A DNA stretch of 39,254 bases from contig JAWOLE010000092.1 of assembly GCA_033853815.1 (NCBI GenBank), positions 1 to 39,254 of the forward strand, read 5' to 3'. Of the stretch, positions 5,903 through 38,333 are shown piece by piece. The translations under genes were made by a program, and so were the position numbers. The notes beneath the pieces were generated by a model. It was not told the origin of the DNA and ran no database searches. It saw only the letters and a program-made list of their open reading frames with translations. Position 1 is the stretch's first letter. Each line of letters opens with the position of its first letter. Origin of the DNA: Thermoanaerobaculia bacterium (GTDB lineage Bacteria > Acidobacteriota > Thermoanaerobaculia > UBA5066 > Gp7-AA6).

Positions 5903-7905
5903 TTCATTTCTCCGGCGCTCTCGAGATTGTCCGCGAACATCGCGGTCACCCAGGATACGGCGTTCGGGGCGAAGAGGCCGGCCACGAGGGCGCGCAGGGC
6001 GTGGTAATGGCCGACGGGAACGACGTGGCCTTCGGGAGCTGGAATCGCGAGGACGCGCGCTTCGGAAGGCTCGGCGGCCTCGGCGGACTCGAAACGCAAA
6101 CCGGCGGCGCCGTCCCAGAAGTCGGCGGAGCCGTCCCTGTGGACGTGAAGCTCCACCTCGCGGCCGTTCCAGCGCCCTCGCGCCGCCAGTGTGCCGGCGG
6201 GCCCGCGCAGTACGAAAAAGCCCGGACGCGGCGCGTCGGCCAGGTACGACCCGAGCGACTCGAAGAGGCGCGGCTTCTCGATGTAGGGGCCGCCGTCCTC
6301 CGGGCAGAAGACGTCGCAGTTGCCGCAGTCGTTGCAGGCGTCGGCCCAGCAGGCGATCTGGTGCGGGGAGGACTCGGGGCCGCCGATCGCGAACGTCCGT
6401 GATTCCCCGGCCACGAGCCGTCCCTCGCGGACGACGAGGTCGCGGTAGAGGATCTTTCGGGGCGGGGTCTCGTAGACGAAGTTCGCGTCGTTGGGGCAGA
6501 CCGGCACGCACTTGTCGCAGTTGATGCAGTCGAAGAGCTTCAGGCGGCTTTCGATCTTGCGGGGAGGCCTGGCGTTCTTCGCGGCCGTGTAGCGCCCGGC
6601 GGAGAGGGCCTCGGCGGCCGCGCGGCGATGGTTGACTAAGGAAGCCTCCGATACGTCCGAAGCCGTGCTCCCGGCGCGCGCCCGGATGAAGGCCGGCACC
6701 GTGGCGGACCGGCTCTCGCCCATCGCGCGAGCCAGGGCCTCGGCCTGTCTGTGCAGCCGCTGGTAGCCGCCCGGGCGGAGGAGGTCGGTGCAGCTCGTCA
6801 CCGGTACGAAGCCACAGGCGACGGTGGCAGCCACGTTGCCGGCGTCCACTCCCGCCGAGAAGGAGATTGGCAGTTCCGGGCCAAGCGCCTCGCGCAGGCG
6901 AAGTCCAAGCGCGAGCGAGAGGACGTGAAGGGGCTCGCCCGAGAGGTACTGCTCGCTGCCGGGGAGCGGCCGCCCCGCGTTCTCGACGACGAGCGTGTTC
7001 GTGAGCTTCACGCCGAAGCTCAAGCCGCGGCGCGCCGCCTCCAAGGAGAGGTCGCGGATGAGCGGCAGGGCGTCGGGCCACTTCAGGTCCTTGTCGAAGG
7101 GCGCCCGCGTCAGGCCGATCTCCGCATAGCCCAGCCGCCCGTGCAGGATGTCCGCGGTCTCTTCGTAGCCGAGGAGCATCGGGTTCAGCTTCACGATCGT
7201 GTGGAGGCCGACTTCCGAGAGGAGAAACCGGCAGATGCCGGCGATCTCACCGGCGGGGCACCCGTGGAAGGTCGAGAGCGTGGCCGAGTCGGAGAGTCGC
7301 GTGGGGCAGGGGACATCGGCGAGGTGTTTGAGGTCCGCCGGCAGCTCCCGTATGAGTCTCGACCGCTCGGCGTCCAGAATGCCCGTGGCGTCGCGCACCC
7401 CCTCGAAGAAGGCGGCCATCTTGCGGGAACGGATGCCCTCGAGGTCGTAGCCGACGGATATGTCGAAAATGACATCGCGCTCGGCCGGAGGAATTCCGCA
7501 GAGCTCGTCCAGGATCGCGACGAGGAGCCGGGCCTTCGCGTACTCGCGCAGGGAGTCCTCGACGAGGAGCTCCTGGGACCACTCGATGTTGTAGCCGACC
7601 GTGCGCATGTCGATGCAGGGCCGGGCGATGACCAGCCGGTCGTTGACCTGGACGGTCTTCAGTTCCAGGATCCGGCCTCCCGCCAGATACGACAGCGCGA
7701 TGTTCTGGGCGAGCTGAGTGTGAGGGCCGGCGGCGGGGCCGACGGGAGTCGCGGCGCGGCGCCCGTGGAACGAGACCGAAAGATCGGCGCCGGGGAGACC
7801 CCTGTAGATCCGCCGCGCCGGCAGGTCGAAGACCGAGCCTCGGGGAAGCTCCCGCGCCGTCCGGCGCACGAGGACGGAGAGCGGCAGCGGGCGAAGAACG
7901 CTCAT
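5899..7905 (-). CDS. ygfK: YgfK-like oxidoreductase, short form (DHODH-like barrel plus two 4Fe-4S motifs)
   Basis: TPVGPAAGPHTQLAQNI, ELKTVQ, RPCID..GYNIEWSQEL, TLSTFHGCP, GVKLTNTL; C-terminal CINCDKCVPVCP and CNDCGNCDVFCP; ATG at 7905 overlaps the ssnA stop. Confidence 0.8.
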   Translation of the reverse strand: MSVLRPLPLSVLVRRTARELPRGSVFDLPARRIYRGLPGADLSVSFHGRRAATPVGPAAGPHTQLAQNIALSYLAGGRILELKTVQVNDRLVIARPCIDMRTVGYNIEWSQELLVEDSLREYAKARLLVAILDELCGIPPAERDVIFDISVGYDLEGIRSRKMAAFFEGVRDATGILDAERSRLIRELPADLKHLADVPCPTRLSDSATLSTFHGCPAGEIAGICRFLLSEVGLHTIVKLNPMLLGYEETADILHGRLGYAEIGLTRAPFDKDLKWPDALPLIRDLSLEAARRGLSFGVKLTNTLVVENAGRPLPGSEQYLSGEPLHVLSLALGLRLREALGPELPISFSAGVDAGNVAATVACGFVPVTSCTDLLRPGGYQRLHRQAEALARAMGESRSATVPAFIRARAGSTASDVSEASLVNHRRAAAEALSAGRYTAAKNARPPRKIESRLKLFDCINCDKCVPVCPNDANFVYETPPRKILYRDLVVREGRLVAGESRTFAIGGPESSPHQIACWADACNDCGNCDVFCPEDGGPYIEKPRLFESLGSYLADAPRPGFFVLRGPAGTLAARGRWNGREVELHVHRDGSADFWDGAAGLRFESAEAAEPSEARVLAIPAPEGHVVPVGHYHALRALVAGLFAPNAVSWVTAMFADNLESAGEMK

Positions 7906-14426: not shown

Positions 14427-14527
14427 TTGAGCCCTTCAGGATAATCGATCGCCCCCCTCAGGGCGAACGCCGCGAGCTGGGCGTGGTGTGCACTTTGATC
14501 TCCCGGGGAGGCATCGGTTTGAAGGCC

Positions 14528-14890
14528 GCCCCGGATCCGTCGGCATTCCCTCGTCGGCACGCGGCGGCTAGGCCACCAGCACGAGATCCGTGCCGCCGCT
14601 CCGGTGCGAGGGCACAGCGACAACTTCTCGCATCTCCCTTTCGGCGTGTGCCCTCGCACAGGGCCTCCTCCGGGAAAAGCCGCCGGCTCCGGGGCTCTCA
14701 GCGCGGCTTGAGTCCCGGTGTGAGCCCCGGCGGCGGGACGACTCCCGGAGGAGGCGATGAGCGAAGGAGCATGGCACGCCGAGTCGTTCGCCTCGCCAAA
14801 CCTGCGACTGAGCGACCAGCGACGGCCCGGGTTTCGCTTTGGCGGTGGGGCCGGAGCGTGCCGACGAGGGAGGCGGCCCGACGCCGGGGC
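14528..14890. repeat. Structured ~360-bp intergenic element, copy 1
   Basis: Perfect 16-bp IR TCCCTCGTCGGCACGC at 14547-14562 / 14856-14871; perfect 13-bp internal stems 14604-14616/14647-14659 and 14663-14675/14743-14755; homologous to 31979-32339 and 36437-36800. Confidence 0.9.
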
Positions 14891-14923
14891 GTCTCGAAGC
14901 GGCACGAATCGGGCCGGCAGGAT

Positions 14924-15619
14924 TCAGGGGAGGCGGGAGGGAGAGGTCCGGGCACCCGGCGGGGCGATGCGGCCGTCGCGGAGCTCCACGACCCGGTCGG
15001 CGCGGCGCGAGGCTGCCGGCCAGTGCGTGGCGAGGACGAGCGTGACGCCGCGCTCGCGGCGGATTCCGTCCAGGAGCTCGAGCACCTGTTCCCCGTTGGC
15101 GCTGTCGAGGTTGCCCGTGGGCTCGTCCGCGAGGAGCAGGCCGGCGCCGGCCGCTAGGGCGCGGGCGATCGCGACCCGCTGCATCTCGCCTCCTGAGAGC
15201 TCGTAGGGGTAAGCCGCGGCTCGGTGGGCGAGTCCCACCCTGTCGAGCAGCTCCGCGGCGATGCGAGCCGCGTCGGGCCGGGCGTCCAGCGCGCCCGGCA
15301 GCTCGACGTTCTCCGCCGCCGAGATGTGAGGCAGAAGGTTGAAGAACTGGAAGACGATCCCGACCTCCCGGCGGCGGTAGAGGGTCAGCTCCGCCTCCGA
15401 GAGAGAGCCGACATCGCGTCCGCCGACGGAGACCGTGCCGGAAGTCGGGCGGTCGATGCCCCCGAGCATATGGAGGAGCGTGGACTTGCCGCCGCCCGAG
15501 GGTCCGACGACGGCGAGGAACTCGCCCGCGGCGACGTCCAGATCGACCGAGTCGAGTGCGACGACAGGTTGCGCTCCCTCGTAGACCTTCCGGAGCGCGC
15601 GGCAGGAAATCGAAGGCAT
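14924..15619 (-). CDS. ABC transporter ATP-binding protein (LolD/MacB type)
   Basis: [43 protein letters not shown]. Confidence 0.93.
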
Positions 15620-29867: not shown

Positions 29868-31894
29868 TCCGGAACGATCTCGAAGACCTTCCAGCGCGCG
29901 AGCCAGCGTCCGCCGCGCCGGATCGCGGAGCGAGAGCGGTAGACGAGGCGGAAATGAGCGAGAGGCGCTATCTGCACGTCGCCGGCCCGGGCGCCGCCGC
30001 CGTCGAAATCGTAGAGGCGTGACTGGAGAGTGGAGAAATACGCCGGCATCGGCACGGGGCCCTGTTCGGTGACGCGCAGGTAGGGGGGGCGCCCGAGAAA
30101 GCCCGCGTAGTCGTTCATGCGCGGCACCAGGTCGGTCGCAAGCACCCAGCGCGCCCTCCGCCCGGCGGCCAGGGTTAGCGCCTCCTCCTCGGATTCCGCG
30201 AGGAAGAACCGGACCGAGTCGAGGAAGCCGTAGCCGAAGTTGTTGGCGACGACCGGCAGTTCCGCCTCGTACAGGATGAGATGGCCGAGCGACCAGGGAG
30301 CGAGCACCGAGGAGGCCTTCGCCAGGTCCGGAAGAGGGGCGCTCGAGAGCAGGCGCGGGTCGTAAGCGTCCACAGCGTGCGGGAGGCGCAGGCGCATCCA
30401 GTCCAGGGTGTCGAAGAGGTCCGAGCCCGGCACACGGATGGCCGTCACCTCTTCGCGGATGCCCGGCGCCATCGGCAGGGCGAGGGCCGCTCCGCAGAGG
30501 ACTGCGAGAACAGAGGCGGACCGAGGGGTCGAGACGAGCCGACGGGCGAGGCCGGCGGCTTCGATGAGGCAGAGGCCGGCCAGGGGCACGGCGTAGTAGA
30601 CGTTCAGCCGCTGGGATAGGGCGAGGAAGAGTGTGACCGCGCCCCAGACCGCGAGAGCGATGTGGACGCCCGGCCGCTGCCGGCGCGCGGCGCGAGTGGC
30701 CCACAGCAGCACGATCAGCGGCGAGAGGAGGAACGCTGCGGAGAGCTGCGTGACGGGCAGGCCGAGGCCATCGGCCAGTAGGGGACGCGCCTCGAAGATC
30801 CCGGAGAGCCAGTTCTTCGGATAGGAGACGTAACCGCTCGCTCCCGAGACTTCGCTCGTCGCGCCGGCGACGTAGCCGATTCCGCGGGCGAGTCCCAGCC
30901 AGAGGTGCGGGGCGAAGGGGAGGACGGCCAGGGCCGCGGCCGCGATCGCGGCGGCACGCCAGCCCGTCTCGCGCCGCGTGAGCTGCCAGCGCGCGGCGCG
31001 CACGGCCGAGTCGAGGAGGATCGTCCCGCCGGCGAGCGCGGCGAGGAAGAGCGGCTGGAAGAGTCCGAAGCTGATGTAGGTGAAGGGGGGGCGCGCGGGG
31101 CCGAGCCAGGCCGCGGTGGCCGGCAGGACGATCGCCGCGGCGAGCCCGAGGATCGAGACGGCCGGCCGGAAGACGCTCTCCCGGGTCACGAGGGCCTCCA
31201 GGAAGAGCGAGAGAGCAATGACCGCGCCCCAGCAGATCGCTCCCTGCCAGGTCAGCACGGCCAGCGCCAGAGCCACGCCCGTGGCGACTTCATTCCAGAT
31301 TCCAGGTTCCAGATTCCAAGCGGCCCGCCTCGCCTCCTGGAATCTGGAATCTGGAATTTGGAATCTGCTCCTGATGAAGAGGAGCAGGACAAGCAGTCCG
31401 AAGAAGGATTCCGCCACGTGCTGGTCGGTGTGCCCGAACTGGGTCCACAGGATGTGGCCCGGCGCGACGGCTACGAAGAGGGCGAGGACGGCGCCTCCGG
31501 CCGGGCCGGCGGCCTCGAGACCCAGGAGGCCGGCCAGGACGATCGAGCCGGCCGCGAAGAAGAGGGGAACCCAGAGCGCCTCCCGCTCGACAGCCTCGGG
31601 CGGGGCGGAAGCGCCATGGAGGATCCGGGACGGCGTCGCGAGCGCGACGTCGAAGAGCGGCGGCCAGATGGCGACGCCTCCCTGCGGGAAGTTCATCAGC
31701 GGATCGAATACGATCGTGCGCGGATAGTGGGAGACCGCGAAACGCGCGCGCCGCAGATGGTAGTAGTCGTCGGCGGTCAGGGCCCGCGCCCGCGCTCCCG
31801 AGGTCAGCTGCTCCCGCGTGGAGAGGCGCAGGCCCGCGCCGATCGCGACCGCGGCGGCGATGCCCAGGAGCAACAGCGCCCGCCGTGATCGCAT
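29864..31894 (-). CDS. STT3/AglB-like oligosaccharyltransferase
   Basis: ADDYYHLRR, FDPLMNFPQG..IWPPLFD, GHTDQHVAE (DxH-type metal motif), IFEARPL (TIxE equivalent), VLAPWSLGHLI...VVANNFG (WWDYG equivalent), FFLAESEEEA; GGAGG before the ATG. Confidence 0.8.
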   Translation of the reverse strand: MRSRRALLLLGIAAAVAIGAGLRLSTREQLTSGARARALTADDYYHLRRARFAVSHYPRTIVFDPLMNFPQGGVAIWPPLFDVALATPSRILHGASAPPEAVEREALWVPLFFAAGSIVLAGLLGLEAAGPAGGAVLALFVAVAPGHILWTQFGHTDQHVAESFFGLLVLLLFIRSRFQIPDSRFQEARRAAWNLEPGIWNEVATGVALALAVLTWQGAICWGAVIALSLFLEALVTRESVFRPAVSILGLAAAIVLPATAAWLGPARPPFTYISFGLFQPLFLAALAGGTILLDSAVRAARWQLTRRETGWRAAAIAAAALAVLPFAPHLWLGLARGIGYVAGATSEVSGASGYVSYPKNWLSGIFEARPLLADGLGLPVTQLSAAFLLSPLIVLLWATRAARRQRPGVHIALAVWGAVTLFLALSQRLNVYYAVPLAGLCLIEAAGLARRLVSTPRSASVLAVLCGAALALPMAPGIREEVTAIRVPGSDLFDTLDWMRLRLPHAVDAYDPRLLSSAPLPDLAKASSVLAPWSLGHLILYEAELPVVANNFGYGFLDSVRFFLAESEEEALTLAAGRRARWVLATDLVPRMNDYAGFLGRPPYLRVTEQGPVPMPAYFSTLQSRLYDFDGGGARAGDVQIAPLAHFRLVYRSRSAIRRGGRWLARWKVFEIVPD
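31292..31366. repeat. Heptamer array with inverted counterpart inside the STT3 CDS (ATTCCAG x4 / CTGGAAT x4)
   Basis: Encodes RFQIPDSRFQEARRAAWNLEPGIWN between two TM helices. Confidence 0.9.
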
Positions 31895-31978
31895 GAGCCT
31901 CCATTATGGGGCCGCAAGGCGTGATGCGAATCGGTAGTGGGTCGTTTTCAGGATCGAGCGGATCGTGGCGGAAAGGAC

Positions 31979-32339
31979 GCCCCGGAGCCGTCGGCATTCC
32001 CTACGAGGCACGCTCCGGCAGGCCGCTCTATCCTCAACCGGCCGTCGCTGAGGGTTCCTCGCAGTCTCAGCGTGGCACAGGTCGCACCCTTCCGTGCTCG
32101 TCACCCATCACCTCGTGCGGGAACGCCGCCGTCTCCGGGGCTCGCGTCGGTGCATAACGTCACGCTGGAGCCCGGCGGCGGGCCCGCCTCCCGGAGGAGT
32201 GCCTTTTGCGAAGGCGCTCCACCTGCGACTCCGTCACGCCACGATGCGACTGCGCCTTCGCAATAGAGCGACGGCCGGTACTCGCTACCTATGGACGTGC
32301 CGTCGCGTGCCGACGAGGGAGGCGGGCCCGACGCCGGGC
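31979..32339. repeat. Structured ~360-bp intergenic element, copy 2 (most diverged; core inverted relative to its flanks)
   Basis: IR at 31998-32013 (degenerate) / 32305-32320; perfect stems 32037-32049/32267-32279 and 32206-32217/32252-32263. Confidence 0.85.
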
Positions 32340-32451
32340 GGATGAACAGGGAAGTTCTGATACTGACCCACTGCCCGCGAATCGCCACGTCGCCGCTCCG
32401 CCTTACGGCCTACCGCCTTTCGCCTCCCGCCCGGTTATCATTCCCGCAACC

Positions 32452-33150
32452 GTGAAACTGTCCGTCCTGATCCCCGTGTACAACGAGGCGCAGACGATCG
32501 ACGATGTCTTGCGGCTGGTCTCCGCCGTGCCGATCGATAAGGAGATCCTCGTCGTGGACGACGGCTCGGTGGACGGCACTCCCGAGATCCTGGCGCGGTG
32601 GGAGGGCAGGGACGGCGTGCGTGTGTTCCGCCACCCCCGCAACATGGGCAAAGGCCGCGCGGTCTCGACCGCTATCCGCGAGGCGCGCGGCGAGATCCTG
32701 CTGATCCAGGACGCGGACCTCGAGTACGACCCGGCGGAGTATCCGACCCTGCTCGGCCCGATCGAGGCCGGCCGCGCGGACGTCGTCTACGGCTCCCGCT
32801 TCCGGGGCGGCTCGGAGAACCGCGTCCAGTTCTTCTGGCACACGGTGGGCAACCGGCTCTTGACGCTCATCTCCAACGTCTTCACCAACCTGAACCTGTC
32901 CGATATGGCCACCTGCTACAAGGCGTTTCACCGGCGCGTCGTGCCCGCCCTCGACCTGACGTCGAAGCGCTTCGGCGTGGACGCCGAGTTCACCGTCAAG
33001 GTCGCCCGCGGCAGCTTCCGCATCTTCGAGGTCCCCGTCTCCTACTTCGGCCGTTCCCGCGCGGAAGGCAAGAAGATCCGCCTGCGAGACGGCTTCGCCG
33101 CGCTCGCGGCCCTCGTGCGGCACACGCTGGAGCCCAAACGGAAAGCTTGA
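32452..33150 (+). CDS. GT2 polyprenol-phosphate glycosyltransferase (DPM1-like)
   Basis: KLSVLIPVYNE, VDDGSVDGT, NMGKG, IQDADLEYDP, VYGSRF, DMATCYK, EVPVSY; GTG at 32452. Confidence 0.88.
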   Translation: MKLSVLIPVYNEAQTIDDVLRLVSAVPIDKEILVVDDGSVDGTPEILARWEGRDGVRVFRHPRNMGKGRAVSTAIREARGEILLIQDADLEYDPAEYPTLLGPIEAGRADVVYGSRFRGGSENRVQFFWHTVGNRLLTLISNVFTNLNLSDMATCYKAFHRRVVPALDLTSKRFGVDAEFTVKVARGSFRIFEVPVSYFGRSRAEGKKIRLRDGFAALAALVRHTLEPKRKA

Positions 33151-34937
33151 GCGGAGCGCACCCAACACGGTCAAGCCGCGGGCCGCTCGCGATCGCCCTG
33201 GCGGCTGTCGGAGCGGGGGCCATCTCTCTCCTCCTCGTCTACGACCATACCCGCAACGATTCGCTCTCCGCCGACGAGCCCGTTCACATCCTGTCCGGCT
33301 ATTTCGAGGTCTGGGCGCACAACGCGATCGTCAACATCGAGCACCCGCCGCTCATGAAAATGCTGGCCGGCCTCGCGCTCAAAGCCCTTCCCCTGCCGCC
33401 TCCGCCGGCGAGCGTCCCGATGGGCGTCACGTTCACCGACTACGGACACGCCTTCCTGTTCGGCGGACCCGTCTCGCCGGACGCGATCGCCGCGGCCGCG
33501 CGGGCTCCCTTCCTCGTCGTCCTCGCGCTCCTCCTCGCGACGGTCTTCCTCTGGGCGCGCCGGCGCTGGGGCGGCGGGCCCGCCCTCTTCGCGATGGCCC
33601 TGCTCGCGTTCGATCCGAACCTCGTAGCCCACGCCGGCGTCGTGCACACCGACCTCGGCGCGGCGTTGACCTTCCTCATCGCCGTTCTGGCCTGGGAGAG
33701 CGCCCGGCGGCGCGGGTCGGTCGCGGCGCTCATCGGCGCGTCCGCGGCGTTCGGCCTCGCACTCGCGACGAAGTTCTCCGCGGTCTACCTCGCGCCGATC
33801 TTCCTCCTGCAAGGCCTCCTCGGGATCCGCGGGCGGGAGAGGCCCGCGGCCGAAGCGGGCCGCGTGCTCGCGCGGTTCGCGGCCGTTTGCGCCGGAGCGC
33901 TCATCGTGGTGCTCTGTGTGTACGCGCCCGTGACGTCCCGGATGAACCGGGCCGACCAGCGCCGCGTCATTCACGAGATGGTCGCCGGCCGCGGCGCGCC
34001 GGGCCTCTCCGCGGCGATCGAGAACGTCGCCTCGGTTTCCCCGCCGCTCGGGCACTATCTTGGCGGCCTCGCCTCGGTCGCGCGCCAGAACGCGGTGGGA
34101 GGCGGGGTGAACTTCCTGTTCGGAAGGGTCTCGGAGGCGAGCTTTCCCCTCTACTTCTTCGTCGCGTTCCTGGCCAAGAGCACCCTGGCGTTCCTCGTCG
34201 TCACCGCGCTGCTCCTCGTGTCGCTCGCGCGCGACGCGGAGACCCGGGCGGAGGCGCTTCTCCTGCTCCTACCCGTCGGGGTCCTCTTTCTCGCGTCGGT
34301 CGGCACGAGCTACAACATCGGGATCCGCCACATGCTGCCGGTCTATCCCTTCCTGGCGCTCGCCGGCGCGGGACTCCTCGCCAGGGCGCGGGCGAGGTCT
34401 CCGCGAGGAGCCTTGGTGTGGCTGCTGGCGGCGCTCCCGCTCCTCTCGGCCATCGAGATCGCCCGGATCCATCCGCACGAACTCTCGTACTTCAATCCCC
34501 TCGTCGGCGGGCCGGAGAAGGGGCGGACCATCCTCTCGGACTCGAACGTGGACTGGGGGCTCGATCTGAAGCGCCTCGCCGCGGAGATCCGCCGCCGGAG
34601 CGCCGCCGATCCCCATCGGCGCGAAGCCGATCCCACAGTCGCGTACTTCGGCGGGGACGACGTGCCCTACCGGATCGGTGTTCCGGACTTCGTGGCCGAT
34701 CCCCGCGTGCGGGGAGGCCTCGTCGCGGTTTCCTCTCTCTATCTCGCCGAAGGGCCCGAATACTTCCTCTACCACGGCGCTCCGCAAGTCGCGGCCGCCT
34801 TGAAACGGCTGCGGGACGACCTCGCCTCTCGCGGCCGGCCCGCCGGGCGGATCGGCTACTCGATCTATCTCTGGGACCTGCCGCCGTCCGGCACGAGTCC
34901 CGAGTCCGGAGTTCCGAGTCCCGCTTCCCGCCCTTGA
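33147..34937 (+). CDS. ArnT/GT39-like GT-C glycosyltransferase
   Basis: SLSADEPVH, NIEHPPLMK, FDPNLVAHAGVVHTD, LATKFS, NIGIRHMLP, LSDSNVDWG; TTG at 33147 overlaps the GT2 stop. Confidence 0.75.
   Translation: MSGAHPTRSSRGPLAIALAAVGAGAISLLLVYDHTRNDSLSADEPVHILSGYFEVWAHNAIVNIEHPPLMKMLAGLALKALPLPPPPASVPMGVTFTDYGHAFLFGGPVSPDAIAAAARAPFLVVLALLLATVFLWARRRWGGGPALFAMALLAFDPNLVAHAGVVHTDLGAALTFLIAVLAWESARRRGSVAALIGASAAFGLALATKFSAVYLAPIFLLQGLLGIRGRERPAAEAGRVLARFAAVCAGALIVVLCVYAPVTSRMNRADQRRVIHEMVAGRGAPGLSAAIENVASVSPPLGHYLGGLASVARQNAVGGGVNFLFGRVSEASFPLYFFVAFLAKSTLAFLVVTALLLVSLARDAETRAEALLLLLPVGVLFLASVGTSYNIGIRHMLPVYPFLALAGAGLLARARARSPRGALVWLLAALPLLSAIEIARIHPHELSYFNPLVGGPEKGRTILSDSNVDWGLDLKRLAAEIRRRSAADPHRREADPTVAYFGGDDVPYRIGVPDFVADPRVRGGLVAVSSLYLAEGPEYFLYHGAPQVAAALKRLRDDLASRGRPAGRIGYSIYLWDLPPSGTSPESGVPSPASRP
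34895..34929. repeat. Heptamer array GAGTCCC x4-5 at the 3' end of the CDS
   Basis: gagtccc gagtccg gagttcc gagtccc gcttccc. Confidence 0.7.
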
Positions 34938-34994
34938 GGGATCGGAGAAGAGCCTCGTTGGCCGCATAATGCTCGCAAGAGGCAGATCCCGGCA

Positions 34995-36413
34995 ATGAAG
35001 CTTTCAGTCGTGATGCCCGTCTATAACGAGGCGAAGACGGTCCGCGAGATCGTCCGCCAGGTCCAGGCCGTTCCCGTCGACAAGGAGATCCTGATCGTGG
35101 ACGACGGCTCGACGGACGGCACGCGGGAGATCCTGCGCGCGATGGACGGGAAAGACGGCGTGAGGGTCTTTCTCCAGCCTCGCAATCAGGGGAAGGGCGC
35201 CGCGGTTTCCGTCGGTTTCCGCTACGCCGAAGGGGACGTCGTCGTCGTGCAGGACGCGGACCTCGAATACGACCCGCGCGAGTACCCCCGGCTCCTGCGC
35301 CCGATCGAAGAGGGACACGCCGACGTCGTGTACGGCTCGCGCTTCCTCGGCGGGGGCGAGCGGCGGGTCCTCTACTTCTGGCACACCGTGGGCAACCGCC
35401 TGCTGACGCTCGCCTCCAACATGGCGACGAACCTGAACCTGACGGACATGGAGACCTGCTACAAGATGTTCCGGCGCGAGGTCGTCCAGTCCATGACGAT
35501 CGAGTCGCGCCGGTTCGGCATCGAACCCGAGATCACGGCCAAGGTCGCCCGCCGGGGGTATCGCGTTTACGAGGTCCCGATCTCCTACTACGGCCGCACC
35601 TACGAAGAGGGGAAGAAGATCGGCTGGAAGGACGCCTTCTCCGCCCTCTGGACGATCGTCAAGCACCGCTTCCGGGAGGCGGAGAACTCGGCCAACGTCG
35701 GGCACGTCACGCTGGCGCGCCTGGCCAGGCTCGAGCCCTACAACCGCTGGCTCGTCGAGCGTTTCACGAAGGCTCTCGGCCGGCGCATCCTGGAGATCGG
35801 AGCGGGTTTCGGAAACCTGACGCGGCACCTCGTCGAGAGCGACGGAGGCCCCGAGCGCGAGCTGGTCGTCGCTTCCGACGTGGACCCGGTGGCCGTCGAG
35901 TATCTCAAGGGGGCCTTCCGCGACAACCGGATCGTGCGGGTCTCCTCCTACAGCTTCCCGCTGACCCCCGCCGAGCGCGAGGAGATCCGCTCCCTCTCGA
36001 TCGACACGATCGTCTGCTGCAACGTCCTCGAGCACATCGAGGACGACGGCGGGACGCTCGCCGACATGCTGGCGATCCTTCAGCCGGGGGGGCGCCTGGT
36101 GCTCCTCGTCCCGGCGCTCTCCTGGCTCTACGGCACGCTCGACGAACACCTGCGCCATTTCCGGCGCTACGAGAAGGCGGAGCTCGAAGAGAAGCTCGCG
36201 AAGGCCGGGTTCGCGATCGACGACTGCCGCTTCGTCAACCGCGTCGGCATCCTCGGCTGGTTCGTGAATGGAAGAGTCCTGCGGCGCAGGGTTCTGCCGC
36301 GCGGCCAGCTTCGCGCCTTCCGGCTCTTCCTGCCTCTTCTCCGCCGCGAGGAGCAGACCCCCCCGACAACCGGCATGTCCCTGCTCGCCGTCGCCCGCAA
36401 ACCCGCCCCGTAG
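34995..36413 (+). CDS. GT2 (DPM1-like) fused to a class I SAM-dependent methyltransferase
   Basis: N-terminal half paralogous to 32452-33150 (VQDADLEYDP, DMETCYK, FGIEPEIT); C-terminal half ILEIGAGFG, DTIVCCNVLEHIEDD, LQPGGRL, GTLD..L.HFRRY. Confidence 0.88.
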   Translation: MKLSVVMPVYNEAKTVREIVRQVQAVPVDKEILIVDDGSTDGTREILRAMDGKDGVRVFLQPRNQGKGAAVSVGFRYAEGDVVVVQDADLEYDPREYPRLLRPIEEGHADVVYGSRFLGGGERRVLYFWHTVGNRLLTLASNMATNLNLTDMETCYKMFRREVVQSMTIESRRFGIEPEITAKVARRGYRVYEVPISYYGRTYEEGKKIGWKDAFSALWTIVKHRFREAENSANVGHVTLARLARLEPYNRWLVERFTKALGRRILEIGAGFGNLTRHLVESDGGPERELVVASDVDPVAVEYLKGAFRDNRIVRVSSYSFPLTPAEREEIRSLSIDTIVCCNVLEHIEDDGGTLADMLAILQPGGRLVLLVPALSWLYGTLDEHLRHFRRYEKAELEEKLAKAGFAIDDCRFVNRVGILGWFVNGRVLRRRVLPRGQLRAFRLFLPLLRREEQTPPTTGMSLLAVARKPAP

Positions 36414-36436
36414 AGCGGTTCCTCTCGCTTCGAGCC

Positions 36437-36800
36437 GCCCGGGCGTCGGGCCGCCTCCCTCGTCGGCACGCTCCGGCCCTGCCGCCAGAGAGAGAACCGG
36501 GCCGTCGCTGGTCGCTCAGTCGCAGGGATGATGGAGCGAACGATTCAGCATACCTTGCTCCTTCACTCATCGCCTCCTCCGGGAGGCGTCCCGCCGCCGA
36601 GGCTGACGCCCAGACATAAGCCCCACTGCCAGCCCCGGAGCCGGGGGCGTTTCCCGGAGGAGGCCTTGTCCGAGGGCACGCACCGCAGTCGTGGCTGAGA
36701 CTTGCTGTCCCTGTGCCCGAAAGACTAGAGCGGCGCCCGCCGGTGAATTCGCGGCCTGGCCGCCGCGTGCCGACGAGGGAAACGGCGACGGATCCGGGGC
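36437..36800. repeat. Structured ~360-bp intergenic element, copy 3 (reverse complement of copy 1)
   Basis: IR at 36456-36471 / 36765-36780; stem 36572-36584/36652-36664; collinear with the reverse complement of 14528-14890. Confidence 0.9.
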
Positions 36801-36872
36801 GTCTTTCTCAGATCAATCTGCGTTGAGGGTTCTGCGGACGATGGAACCCAGCACTCTTGATCGGTTCAGGGG

Positions 36873-38333
36873 TCACTTCGGTGACGGTGGCGGCCCGGTG
36901 GTGAAGGCGGCGAGAAACGCGGCGGGGAATGAAGCCACCGTCCGCACACGGCCTCGGGCGGAGAGAGACTGCTCGAGGCGCGGCGTCCAGAAGGGGCGAT
37001 CGAAAAGGAGGAAGACGGTGTGGTCCGTCCCGGCGCGCGAGGCGTTCTCCACGAGACGGTTCTCCTCTTCCTGCGACGGGTGCTGCTGGAGAAACCAGCC
37101 GGGATGGTTGGCAAGGTCGGCCGGGAAGGCGGCGAGGTCGGCCGCGAGCAGGCCACGATCCCGCGCGAGGCGCGCCGGCAGGTACATGGTGGCTGTCGCC
37201 ACGACGAGGTCGCCCTTTCGAGCCTCCGACTCGACACTCGGGATCAGGTCGGAGGAGGGGCGGGGCCGCGTCGGCGCCGTGAGCAGGAGAAGGCTCGCGA
37301 CGGCCGCGATGAGGGAGGCCGCGGCGACGCCTCGCCGCACCGCGCCCGACCCTTCCGCTTTTCGCGCCAGGAGCCAGAACCAGATCGGAAGGACCGTCAT
37401 CTCGGTCCGGCCGGCGAAGGCGACCGGGCGTCCGAGCGAGGCCGCGAGGACGCTTCCGAGCGTCAGTAGAAGGGTGGCGATTCCCAGTCGGTCCTCGGCG
37501 TCGTGGGGGCGCCTGAGGGCGAGGAACAGGAGCGCGGCCCCGGCGGCGCAGGCAAGCCACAACAGCGGCTCGGGCAGCCGCGGGCCGAAGGGCGCCGAGA
37601 CGCGCAGGGCGCCTCCCAGAGCGGCGAGGAAGCCGGCCGCGGCGACCTGCGGCGGCTCCCGCATCCAGGCGGTGGCGGCCCGCGGCTGCGCGATGAGGAC
37701 CGGCGACCAGGGTAGGAAGAGGACGAGTCCCGCCGCGAGCGCCAGAGCAGAGCGCCGGCGCCCCTGGGTGACGGATGCTAGCAGAAGGGAACCCACGAGG
37801 AAGAGCGCCAGGTAGTGCGTCCACAGGGCAAAGGCCGCCGCGAGCGCGATCGCCGCGAATCCGCGCCAGCCGGCCGCATCGGCGGCCACGAGAAGAAAGA
37901 GCAGGAATCCGACGAGGGCGAGCACGGCGTAGGCCCGGGCCTCGGCCGAGTAGAGAAGAAAGAAGGGCGAGCAGGCCGCGAGCAGGAGGAAATAGCCGCG
38001 CGAGCGGCCCGGCGGGAGCGATCGAGCGCCGGCGAAGAGAATCGCGAGCGCCAGGAAGGGAAGGAGCCGTGCCGTCGAGTCGGGCAGCGCGAGCGCTTCC
38101 GCGGCTCGCACGAGCGGCTTCTCGAGGAGATAGAAGAGCGGCGGCCCGGAATCGAGGGCGAGCGCGTGCAGCAGGTGGGGCGGCGAGAGCCTCGCGGCCC
38201 AGAGCGTGAAGATCTCATCGTGCCAGAGAGGCCGCGTGGCGAGCAGCCACACGCGCGCGGCGACCGAGAGGGCCGCGAGGGCCACCACCGCGGCCGCCGC
38301 GATCCGTTCGCGGTTGTCTGTCTCTGTTTTGAT
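36873..38333 (-). CDS. GT39/PMT-like GT-C glycosyltransferase
   Basis: PLWHDEIFT, DSGPPLFYLL, YSAEARAYA, WTHY, FLPW motifs; frame open to ATC at 38333 (first canonical start is GTG 38288), so start is uncertain. Confidence 0.75.
   Translation of the reverse strand: MKTETDNRERIAAAAVVALAALSVAARVWLLATRPLWHDEIFTLWAARLSPPHLLHALALDSGPPLFYLLEKPLVRAAEALALPDSTARLLPFLALAILFAGARSLPPGRSRGYFLLLAACSPFFLLYSAEARAYAVLALVGFLLFLLVAADAAGWRGFAAIALAAAFALWTHYLALFLVGSLLLASVTQGRRRSALALAAGLVLFLPWSPVLIAQPRAATAWMREPPQVAAAGFLAALGGALRVSAPFGPRLPEPLLWLACAAGAALLFLALRRPHDAEDRLGIATLLLTLGSVLAASLGRPVAFAGRTEMTVLPIWFWLLARKAEGSGAVRRGVAAASLIAAVASLLLLTAPTRPRPSSDLIPSVESEARKGDLVVATATMYLPARLARDRGLLAADLAAFPADLANHPGWFLQQHPSQEEENRLVENASRAGTDHTVFLLFDRPFWTPRLEQSLSARGRVRTVASFPAAFLAAFTTGPPPSPK

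Follow-up and report, generated by a model that had tools for sequence, protein, structure and literature searches.

The window analysed here, a stretch of 39,254 nucleotides with a G+C content of 69.7%, is contig C92 of G000, a 4.06-Mb draft metagenome-assembled genome (MAG) of the Thermoanaerobaculia in 477 contigs. It contains three mutually alignable stretches of about 365 bp, at positions 14528-14892 (copy 1), 31979-32339 (copy 2) and 36437-36800 (copy 3), which carry the 16-bp motif TCCCTCGTCGGCACGC / GCGTGCCGACGAGGGA, a central arm and side hairpins. They lie between pairs of open reading frames (ORFs) arranged in tandem, divergently and convergently, respectively, so that both the three related intergenic stretches and the three gene settings described in an initial annotation of this DNA were recovered. 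We present evidence that these stretches very probably represent a miniature inverted-repeat transposable element (MITE), i.e. a DNA transposon that is some 440-470 bp long, non-autonomous and moved in trans. The evidence consists of the copy number, the tight length distribution, terminal inverted repeats (TIRs), target-site duplications (TSDs), filled and empty sites in related genomes, and the presence of two classes of ends on one and the same core.

The boundaries of the element are best seen at copy 2, where the whole element is 443 bp long (31933-32375, plus strand) and surrounds the core at 31979-32339. It begins with the 11-bp left TIR GGTAGTGGGTC (31933-31943) and ends with the right TIR GACCCACTGCC (32365-32375), whose reverse complement, GGCAGTGGGTC, agrees with the left TIR at 10 of 11 positions. 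The TIRs are directly flanked by the two halves of an 8-bp TSD, TGCGAATC on the left (31925-31932, plus strand) and CGCGAATC on the right (32376-32383, plus strand), which are identical at seven of eight positions; the direct-repeat search at this copy picked up GCGAATCG. The initial annotation had reported that no target-site duplication was visible, which is incorrect for copy 2, and the coordinates it gave delimit the conserved core, while the element itself runs some 35-60 bp further out on each side.

The outer limits of copies 1 and 3 can be given only approximately because their ends have decayed. Copy 1 occupies 14480-14930 on the plus strand and has lost a clean TSD; its outer parts, which add about 48 nt to the left of the core and about 36-38 nt to its right, were recognized by homology to its sister copies C454 and C288, which have 8-mer direct repeats in their flanks. 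Its core (14528-14892, plus strand) is composed of a left half, bearing the side hairpin (14604-14615 / 14648-14659), and a right half, designated U (about 14724-14892), with the terminus GCGTGCCGACGAGGGAGGCGGCCCGACGCCGGGGC. Copy 3 occupies 36405-36858 on the minus strand, with its core at 36437-36800 on the same strand and its outer parts placed by homology to the consensus of subfamily 3 (see below). Its left edge in the window adjoins the TAG stop codon (36411-36413) of a GT2/methyltransferase ORF, and it is inserted in the orientation opposite to that of copy 1, the two being 84% complementary across 270 nt.

The side hairpin of copy 2 (32206-32217 / 32252-32263) is located in the right half. 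The three compensated base-pair changes that had been noticed between the side hairpins of copies 1 and 2 are real, but they are found at mirrored positions, since the side hairpin of copy 1 belongs to the left half. Relative to the distinguishable ends, the halves of the core are swapped between these two copies, as though the inner segment of the element, judged from its sequence, had been flipped between inverted repeats.

A blastn search of the whole G000 assembly with all three window copies gave 561 alignments, which merged into 131 loci, 102 of them at least 330 bp long (lengths 360-421 bp). The loci sum to 44.9 kb, or 1.1% of the 4.06-Mb genome, and 24 of the 131 touch contig ends; the expectation of many copies genome-wide, originally drawn from the three in the window, was thus correct. 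The element measures 360-470 bp and has no internal transposase gene. When the 99 full copies with flanks were grouped at 75% identity, four groups were obtained: subfamily 3, with 36 copies including copies 1 and 3 (mean identity within the group 85%); a group of 37 copies (80%); subfamily 1, with 21 copies (91%); and a group of five copies that includes copy 2 (88%). The ends of the subfamilies were set by aligning each of them with 200-bp flanks.

The element is not confined to G000. Of the 41 related genomes searched (labelled G001 and so on, G018 and G020 being unpublished), 19 gave matches, G000 included, covering all nine congeners searched and several other genera of the family. A second family gave three weak single matches (E about 1e-4) and a third gave none in the same search. 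The relatives bearing the motif are Acidobacteriota of the class Thermoanaerobaculia, represented by MAGs from soil-type metagenomes, and they also carry monomer variants of about 200 bp in which the right half alone is retained. No match was obtained when a plasmid collection was searched by blastn in distant mode with the complete copy 2 as the query.

Two classes of ends were distinguished. Class ii is defined by TIRs of the GGTAGTGGGTCA type (as the pair GGTAGTGGGTCA...TGACCCACTACC) and by TSDs of 8 bp; its ends read G-GTAG-TGGGTCA ... TGACCCA-CTAC-C. Copy 2 belongs to this class, both marks being directly visible in the window, and its TIRs also occur in G007 and G006. Among the copies of related genomes, the TIRs agree at 11 of 11 positions at loci L015 and L031, and perfect 8-bp TSDs are present at L015 (GAAGGATC), L031 (CGCCGTGC), L082 (GAGTTGGG) and L083 (GGACCGCG). 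Copies 1 and 3 can probably be assigned to class ii through their membership of subfamily 3, whose consensus has a diverged class ii TIR (GGTAGTGTCCTG ... AGGACACTA). In this subfamily, an exact 8-mer direct repeat was found at the expected place in six of the 36 copies, compared with 20 of 1260 mismatched left/right controls, and a repeat with at most one mismatch in 20 of 36, compared with 380 of 1260; only this position-constrained search differed from the controls, an unconstrained search for direct repeats in the flanks giving the same result as they did.

Class i ends, with TIRs of about 25-30 nt that begin with GTTCCCTGTAAC, were found only in subfamily 1 and in part of subfamily 4. The 21 copies of subfamily 1 are bounded as CTAG/TGGTGTGTAACA...TGTTACACGGAA/CTAG and run from CTAG/TGGTGTGTAACATTCGAATCGATAG to GGTATCGATTCCGCTGTTACACGGAA/CTAG, and the copies concerned in subfamily 4 have CTAG/TTCCCTGTAACGATTGAATCGATATCGCG as their left terminus and its inverted counterpart as their right one. 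The flanks of most copies read C-TA to the left of the element and TA-G to the right, a pattern that fits the duplication of TA at a CTAG target; a preference for targets of the CTAG type is characteristic of IS630. The outer sequences were found solely beside the core (16 of 16, 14 of 14 and 12 of 12 matches), and shorter words from the TIRs occurred 28, 11 and 17 times near a core and three, zero and zero times elsewhere.

A 15-mer of the class i TIR matched two units of 1118 bp in the complete genome of the congener G007. These units, L078 (G007:C1:680811-681928) and L079 (G007:C1:2565370-2566487), are 100% identical to each other and flanked by CTAG, their ends reading CTAG/TTGCCTGTAACAGTTGAAACGCTATC ... 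GTTACAGAGAA/CTAG, and their TIRs resemble class i ends. Each unit encodes a protein of 357 aa with a DDE_3 domain (E = 6e-24) and helix-turn-helix domains, and is therefore an insertion sequence (IS) of the IS630 family. Class i copies would accordingly have a candidate mover, an IS630-family DDE transposase like that of the G007 element acting in trans, whereas the mover of class ii copies would be a different cut-and-paste transposase. There is some homology between the outer parts of the two classes (about 25 nt of the left side, next to the core, and GGAT..AGGGAAGTTC on the right side), so that class i looks like a relative of class ii that has gained IS630-type termini, or the reverse.

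A search for filled and empty sites in relatives had been suggested as a check of mobility, and for copy 2 as well as for copy 3 four congeners with an empty site were found. At the site of copy 3, the stop codons of the convergent genes are 459 nt apart in G000 and about 20-60 nt apart in G006, G007, G001 and G002; the G000 sequence just past the element, whose downstream part was aligned alone (MAFFT), is in line with the sequence that follows the stop codon in these four congeners. At the site of copy 2, the divergent genes are separated by about 560 nt in G000 and by about 40-125 nt in G007, G008, G001 and G002. G006 holds a copy of its own in the same intergenic region (G006:C3:552290, to be compared with window position 31933), beside the start of an STT3-like gene, but its TSD (GGACCGCG) differs from that of G000 (TGCGAATC), which indicates an insertion separate from copy 2. 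The exact junctions of filled and empty sites are blurred by a divergence of about 20%. In the four sequencing runs compared with the window (positions 31400-37400), no contig spanned an empty site.

The reverse case was also encountered: locus L046 is filled in a relative and empty on contig C34 of G000. The insertion at L046 (465-685), as compared with positions 6047-6125 or so of C34, is a short variant of about 220 bp, consisting of one half, within the first codons of a gene, and the gene apparently starts at a new ATG directly beside the CTAG end of the element.

The combination of TIRs with TSDs of either TA or 8 bp is indicative of transposition of the DDE cut-and-paste type; transposases encoded elsewhere would act on the ends of the element. 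The non-autonomous mobile element proposed in the initial annotation is thus well founded, considering that it has TIRs and TSDs, that orthologous sites are filled in some genomes and empty in others, and that its copies number more than 100, but the same cannot be said of the route envisaged there, in which REPIN-like elements, i.e. inverted ends of the repetitive extragenic palindromic (REP) type with GTAG heads, are moved as single-stranded hairpins by a RAYT enzyme (HUH/Y1). To our knowledge, the chemistry of IS200/IS605 and RAYT produces no target duplication, while the copies described here are flanked by TSDs of 8 bp or TA, and one end class matches an IS630-family IS. The element does share with REPINs its high copy number, its intergenic location, its strongly palindromic sequence and folding, and the tetranucleotide GTAG within class ii ends; REPs headed by GTAG are described in PMC3733652. 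With its 440-470 bp, it is far above the size of a REP doublet (about ten times larger). G000 does contain four matches to Y1_Tnp above the Pfam cut-off (L011-L014, on contigs C166, C333, C3 and C134), but none of these HUH transposase-like genes adjoins a copy of the element: C166, C333 and C134 contain no copy, and on C3 the nearest one is about 4.3 kb from the Y1_Tnp gene. A REPIN-like nature is consequently extremely unlikely. A TnpB/omega-RNA system was also considered and rejected, PF07282 having no match in G000.

The most unusual part of this MITE is its core, where a module of about 170-185 nt has been duplicated in inverted orientation; the left half corresponds to the right half in reverse complement, though it has diverged. 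Two drawings of the core are consequently possible, a single long hairpin and a pair of self-folding domains, and minimum-energy folds of single sequences were indeed divided between these two forms. For the analysis of covariation, 28 cores were aligned, three from the window and 25 from related genomes (including one from the unpublished G018), and from this alignment RNAalifold picked the two-domain fold. In the local fold, 97.5% of the cells are paired, compared with 91.3% in shuffles, and 16 of 50 pairs are changed on both sides, compared with 7.5 in shuffles (none of 500 reaching 16), counts that are not probabilities, because the structure was scored on the alignment from which it was derived and the rows are related. 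When the partner was slid by 1-3 columns as a control, only two to five double-changed pairs were left. The clearest covarying stem is an 8-bp hairpin of the left half, found as GCGCCGGC/GCCGGCGC, GCGGCGGC/GCCGCCGC, GCGCGGGC/GCCCGCGC, GCGCCCGC/GCGGGCGC and GCGCGCGC/GCGCGCGC. The side hairpin also occurs in several fully paired variants; since a loose regular-expression scan for them gave mostly chance matches, the five all-paired variants located inside elements were used.

The long inter-arm hairpin, of which the 16-bp closing repeat and the central arm are parts, behaves differently. Its cells are paired in 79.8% of cases, compared with 79.5% in shuffles (86 of 500 reach the observed value), it shows 18 double-changed pairs as opposed to 20.9 in shuffles, and the arms within a G000 copy are no more complementary to each other than to those of other copies (z = 2.5, -1.5 and -1.0). 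A single long hairpin was therefore rejected as the conserved structure. In contrast, local stems in G000 pair better with their own partners than after shuffling (z = 5.0 in subfamily 3 and z = 9.6 in subfamily 4). Of the secondary structure postulated earlier, covariation thus speaks for the local stems of each half but not for a single fold of many stems with the 16-bp inverted repeat as its closing stem, whose long-range pairs do not covary.

Compensation within stems could in principle arise with no selection at all, if one arm of a quasi-palindrome were copied from the other by template switching. Such a DNA-level process would predict the strand symmetry of the compensated changes (see below), and the stems are short GC-rich hairpins of the kind prone to such events. 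On the other hand, the long inter-arm palindrome, which would be the best substrate, displays neither covariation nor an excess of within-copy complementarity, and the local stems of the youngest subfamily display none either. Compensation therefore looks tied to the founders of the subfamilies rather than ongoing, and we regard template switching as an improbable origin of the covariation. The alternative we favour for the MITE is that each half of its core would fold into a few local DNA hairpins, in single-stranded or cruciform state, and that these hairpins would be kept by selection acting on copies that still propagate.

A conserved folding sequence of this size also recalls a functional structured RNA, such as a small RNA or a cis-acting transcript element, serving the host or the element, of which the whole core or its right half U (about 170 nt) would be the gene, carried along by the MITE. 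In its favour, long runs of the right half are invariant across genera (e.g. AGCGACGG, GCGTGCCGACGAGGGAGGCGG and CCTCCCGGAGGAG), the monomer variants of relatives retain precisely this half, the local stems covary, and in many copies the Shine-Dalgarno-like sequence GGAGGAGG is followed by ATG. However, the ATG is replaced in many other copies, and a small ORF behind GGAGGAGG-N-ATG was rejected: in the 110 of 133 copies in which all anchors could be located, the second interval between anchors measured 38, 39 or 40 nt (in 23, 82 and five copies, respectively), which leaves no reading frame. Rfam (Rfam 15) gave no match at the gathering score over the whole window, and, with E values up to 10 admitted on copy 1, nothing credible (best E = 1.1, 17 bits against a gathering score of 60), in agreement with the initial annotation, in which no known family was recognised.

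Evidence of a preferred strand was equally lacking. When the folds of both strands were pooled, 38 G:U and 43 A:C cells were counted, and copy-specific single changes gave 422 G:U and 379 A:C; subfamily 3 alone gave 183 and 126, along with an excess of C>T. Neither strand folds better than the other, the plus strand being the more stable in 13 of 28 cores. In tandem gene contexts, 23 copies are oriented with the genes and 17 against them. The stems of the right half (helices 7, 8 and 10) hardly vary and are therefore uninformative in either direction, but those that do vary covary equally on either strand, and are for this reason read as hairpins at the DNA level rather than as host RNA. A symmetric constraint on local hairpins would fit a DNA structure with a role in the movement or copying of the element.

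Four sequencing runs, one of them an RNA library (a metatranscriptome), were compared as assembled contigs with positions 31400-37400 of the window. In the DNA runs, bins over the elements were 20-40 times deeper than the flanks; in the RNA library, they reached 57 and 29, compared with 0-7 in the flanks. Because the depth of the element bins matches the copy number, transcription is not demonstrated by the RNA library. Assembled contigs of other copies diverge from the window at 32338, 36426 and 36801, that is, at the edges of the core. As neither strand asymmetry nor an orientation bias nor an RNA depth beyond copy number was found, the large structured non-coding RNA (ncRNA) that had been put forward as an alternative is quite unlikely. 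The genomic setting of the MITE is intergenic: of the 99 full copies, 88 have an overlap of less than 10% with crude ORF calls, and convergent intergenic regions are over-represented (27 of 80 copies, compared with 301 of 1547 regions genome-wide).

The core also serves as a landing site for a further mobile element. In G006, four pairs of class ii TIRs are 1.93-1.98 kb apart, and the two that were examined, L082 (G006:C8:63300-65620) and L083 (G006:C3:552120-554440), proved to be class ii MITEs each with an insert of 1485 bp encoding a protein with DEDD_Tnp_IS110 and Transposase_20 domains. In both, the insert is situated in the conserved right half of the core, at ...GGAGGAGCGCCG/TGAG/CGAAAGC.... 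The inserts are 100% identical and the MITE parts 95%, all 25 differences falling within 496 bp of MITE. Since the differences are confined to the MITE and the 8-bp TSDs of the two copies are unlike, the IS110-family element must have landed independently, twice, at one motif. Its left end, a non-coding segment of about 250 nt, might contain the sequence of a bridge RNA directed at the MITE.

These landings fit the insertion of IS110 elements, guided by bridge RNA, into repeated palindromic sequences, as reported in PMC12288879 and PMC11208160; the former includes ISPpu9, which targets REP sequences, and 10.64898/2026.03.19.712850 describes ISPpu10, which targets a conserved intergenic repeat. 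The G006 case resembles these in that an IS110-family element occupies one position in two copies of a repeat, but differs from them in that the site is inside the core of a MITE; no IS110 gene of the G006 type was found in G000, the genome of the window.

One may go further and see in the core of about 365 bp a selected self-folding DNA module, made of two inverted domains of about 170 nt with covarying hairpins, which has been adopted by at least two unrelated transposition systems, an IS630-type (TA) and another type (8 bp), as its carriers, and which is in addition a specific landing pad for a bridge recombinase of the IS110 family. We put this forward tentatively and consider it rather doubtful. 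If it were true, the core module would be a three-way hub of mobile-element interactions in the Thermoanaerobaculia, and not passive filling.

Several observations weigh against the interpretation as a MITE with a selected fold. The ends of copies 1 and 3 are decayed and have no convincing TSD, and at class i ends a duplication of TA is indistinguishable from one of the four bases CTAG, because CTAG is a palindrome. The youngest subfamily (subfamily 1) shows no within-copy pairing excess (z = -1.3), to which the dependence of the covariation score on its own alignment must be added. Across genera, the middle of the element, and most of all its right half, is more strongly conserved than the TIRs, which a plain MITE model, in which TIRs matter and filling does not, fails to predict. 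Finally, a homologue of the G007 IS630-family protein was not found in G000 by protein search or tblastn, a class ii transposase was not found in G000, G006, G007, G008 or G022, and a cognate transposase for either end class was not found in the G000 draft; this last failure is weak evidence, because the draft is in 477 contigs and ISs often fail to assemble. Considering the 80-91% identity within subfamilies and the missing cognate transposase in the draft, the copies of G000 are mostly old and probably fossils.

Other repeats are present in the neighbourhood of copy 2. Positions 31292-31364 of the window form a palindrome with arms of 33 nt made of heptad repeats (ATTCCAG/GGAATCT type), and the first 66 nt or so of the segment 31300-31924, which overlaps it, match at least 16 other places in G000 and several in G008, and therefore represent a second repeat family; GGAACCT runs similar to these heptads flank some copies of the MITE. 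In addition, segments 32453-33123 and 34996-35666, 2543 bp apart, are 71% identical and, from their sequence, look like a duplicated start of a GT2 glycosyltransferase gene. In congeners, the GT2 gene directly follows the STT3-like gene.

Among known elements, the closest parallel is provided by bacterial MITEs derived from the IS630 family, such as RUP of Streptococcus pneumoniae and Nezha of cyanobacteria. Like them, the element is non-autonomous, intergenic and present in many copies, with duplication of TA, preferably within CTAG, and class i TIRs that resemble those of an IS630-family IS of a congener. Unlike them, it is large for a bacterial MITE and is better conserved inside than at its ends, and the copies of the window have other TIRs, copy 2 being accompanied by an 8-bp TSD. 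With foldback or long-palindrome transposons, and with large structured bacterial ncRNAs such as OLE, GOLLD, HEARO and ROOL, it shares a length of several hundred nucleotides and the presence of many stems, but it has no Rfam match and no strand specificity, and its long palindrome does not covary. By title and abstract, a full-text literature search found no description of transposable elements for this lineage; the MITE survey PMC11602168 may include Acidobacteriota families in its supplements.

The MITE family described here is new, and belongs to a poorly studied lineage; as a kind of element it is ordinary, while its conserved self-folding middle is unusual. What distinguishes it is the combination of one locally folded core with two classes of ends and TSDs, and the fact that an IS110-family element has landed twice at one motif of this core, which makes the motif a candidate natural target of a bridge RNA. 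Knowledge of the family guards against mistaking such stretches for regulatory RNAs, and supplies the lineage with precise ends, target rules and a candidate partner of the IS630 family. The family accounts for about 1% of the genome, and for a large part of the fragmentation seen in this MAG and in those of related Thermoanaerobaculia.

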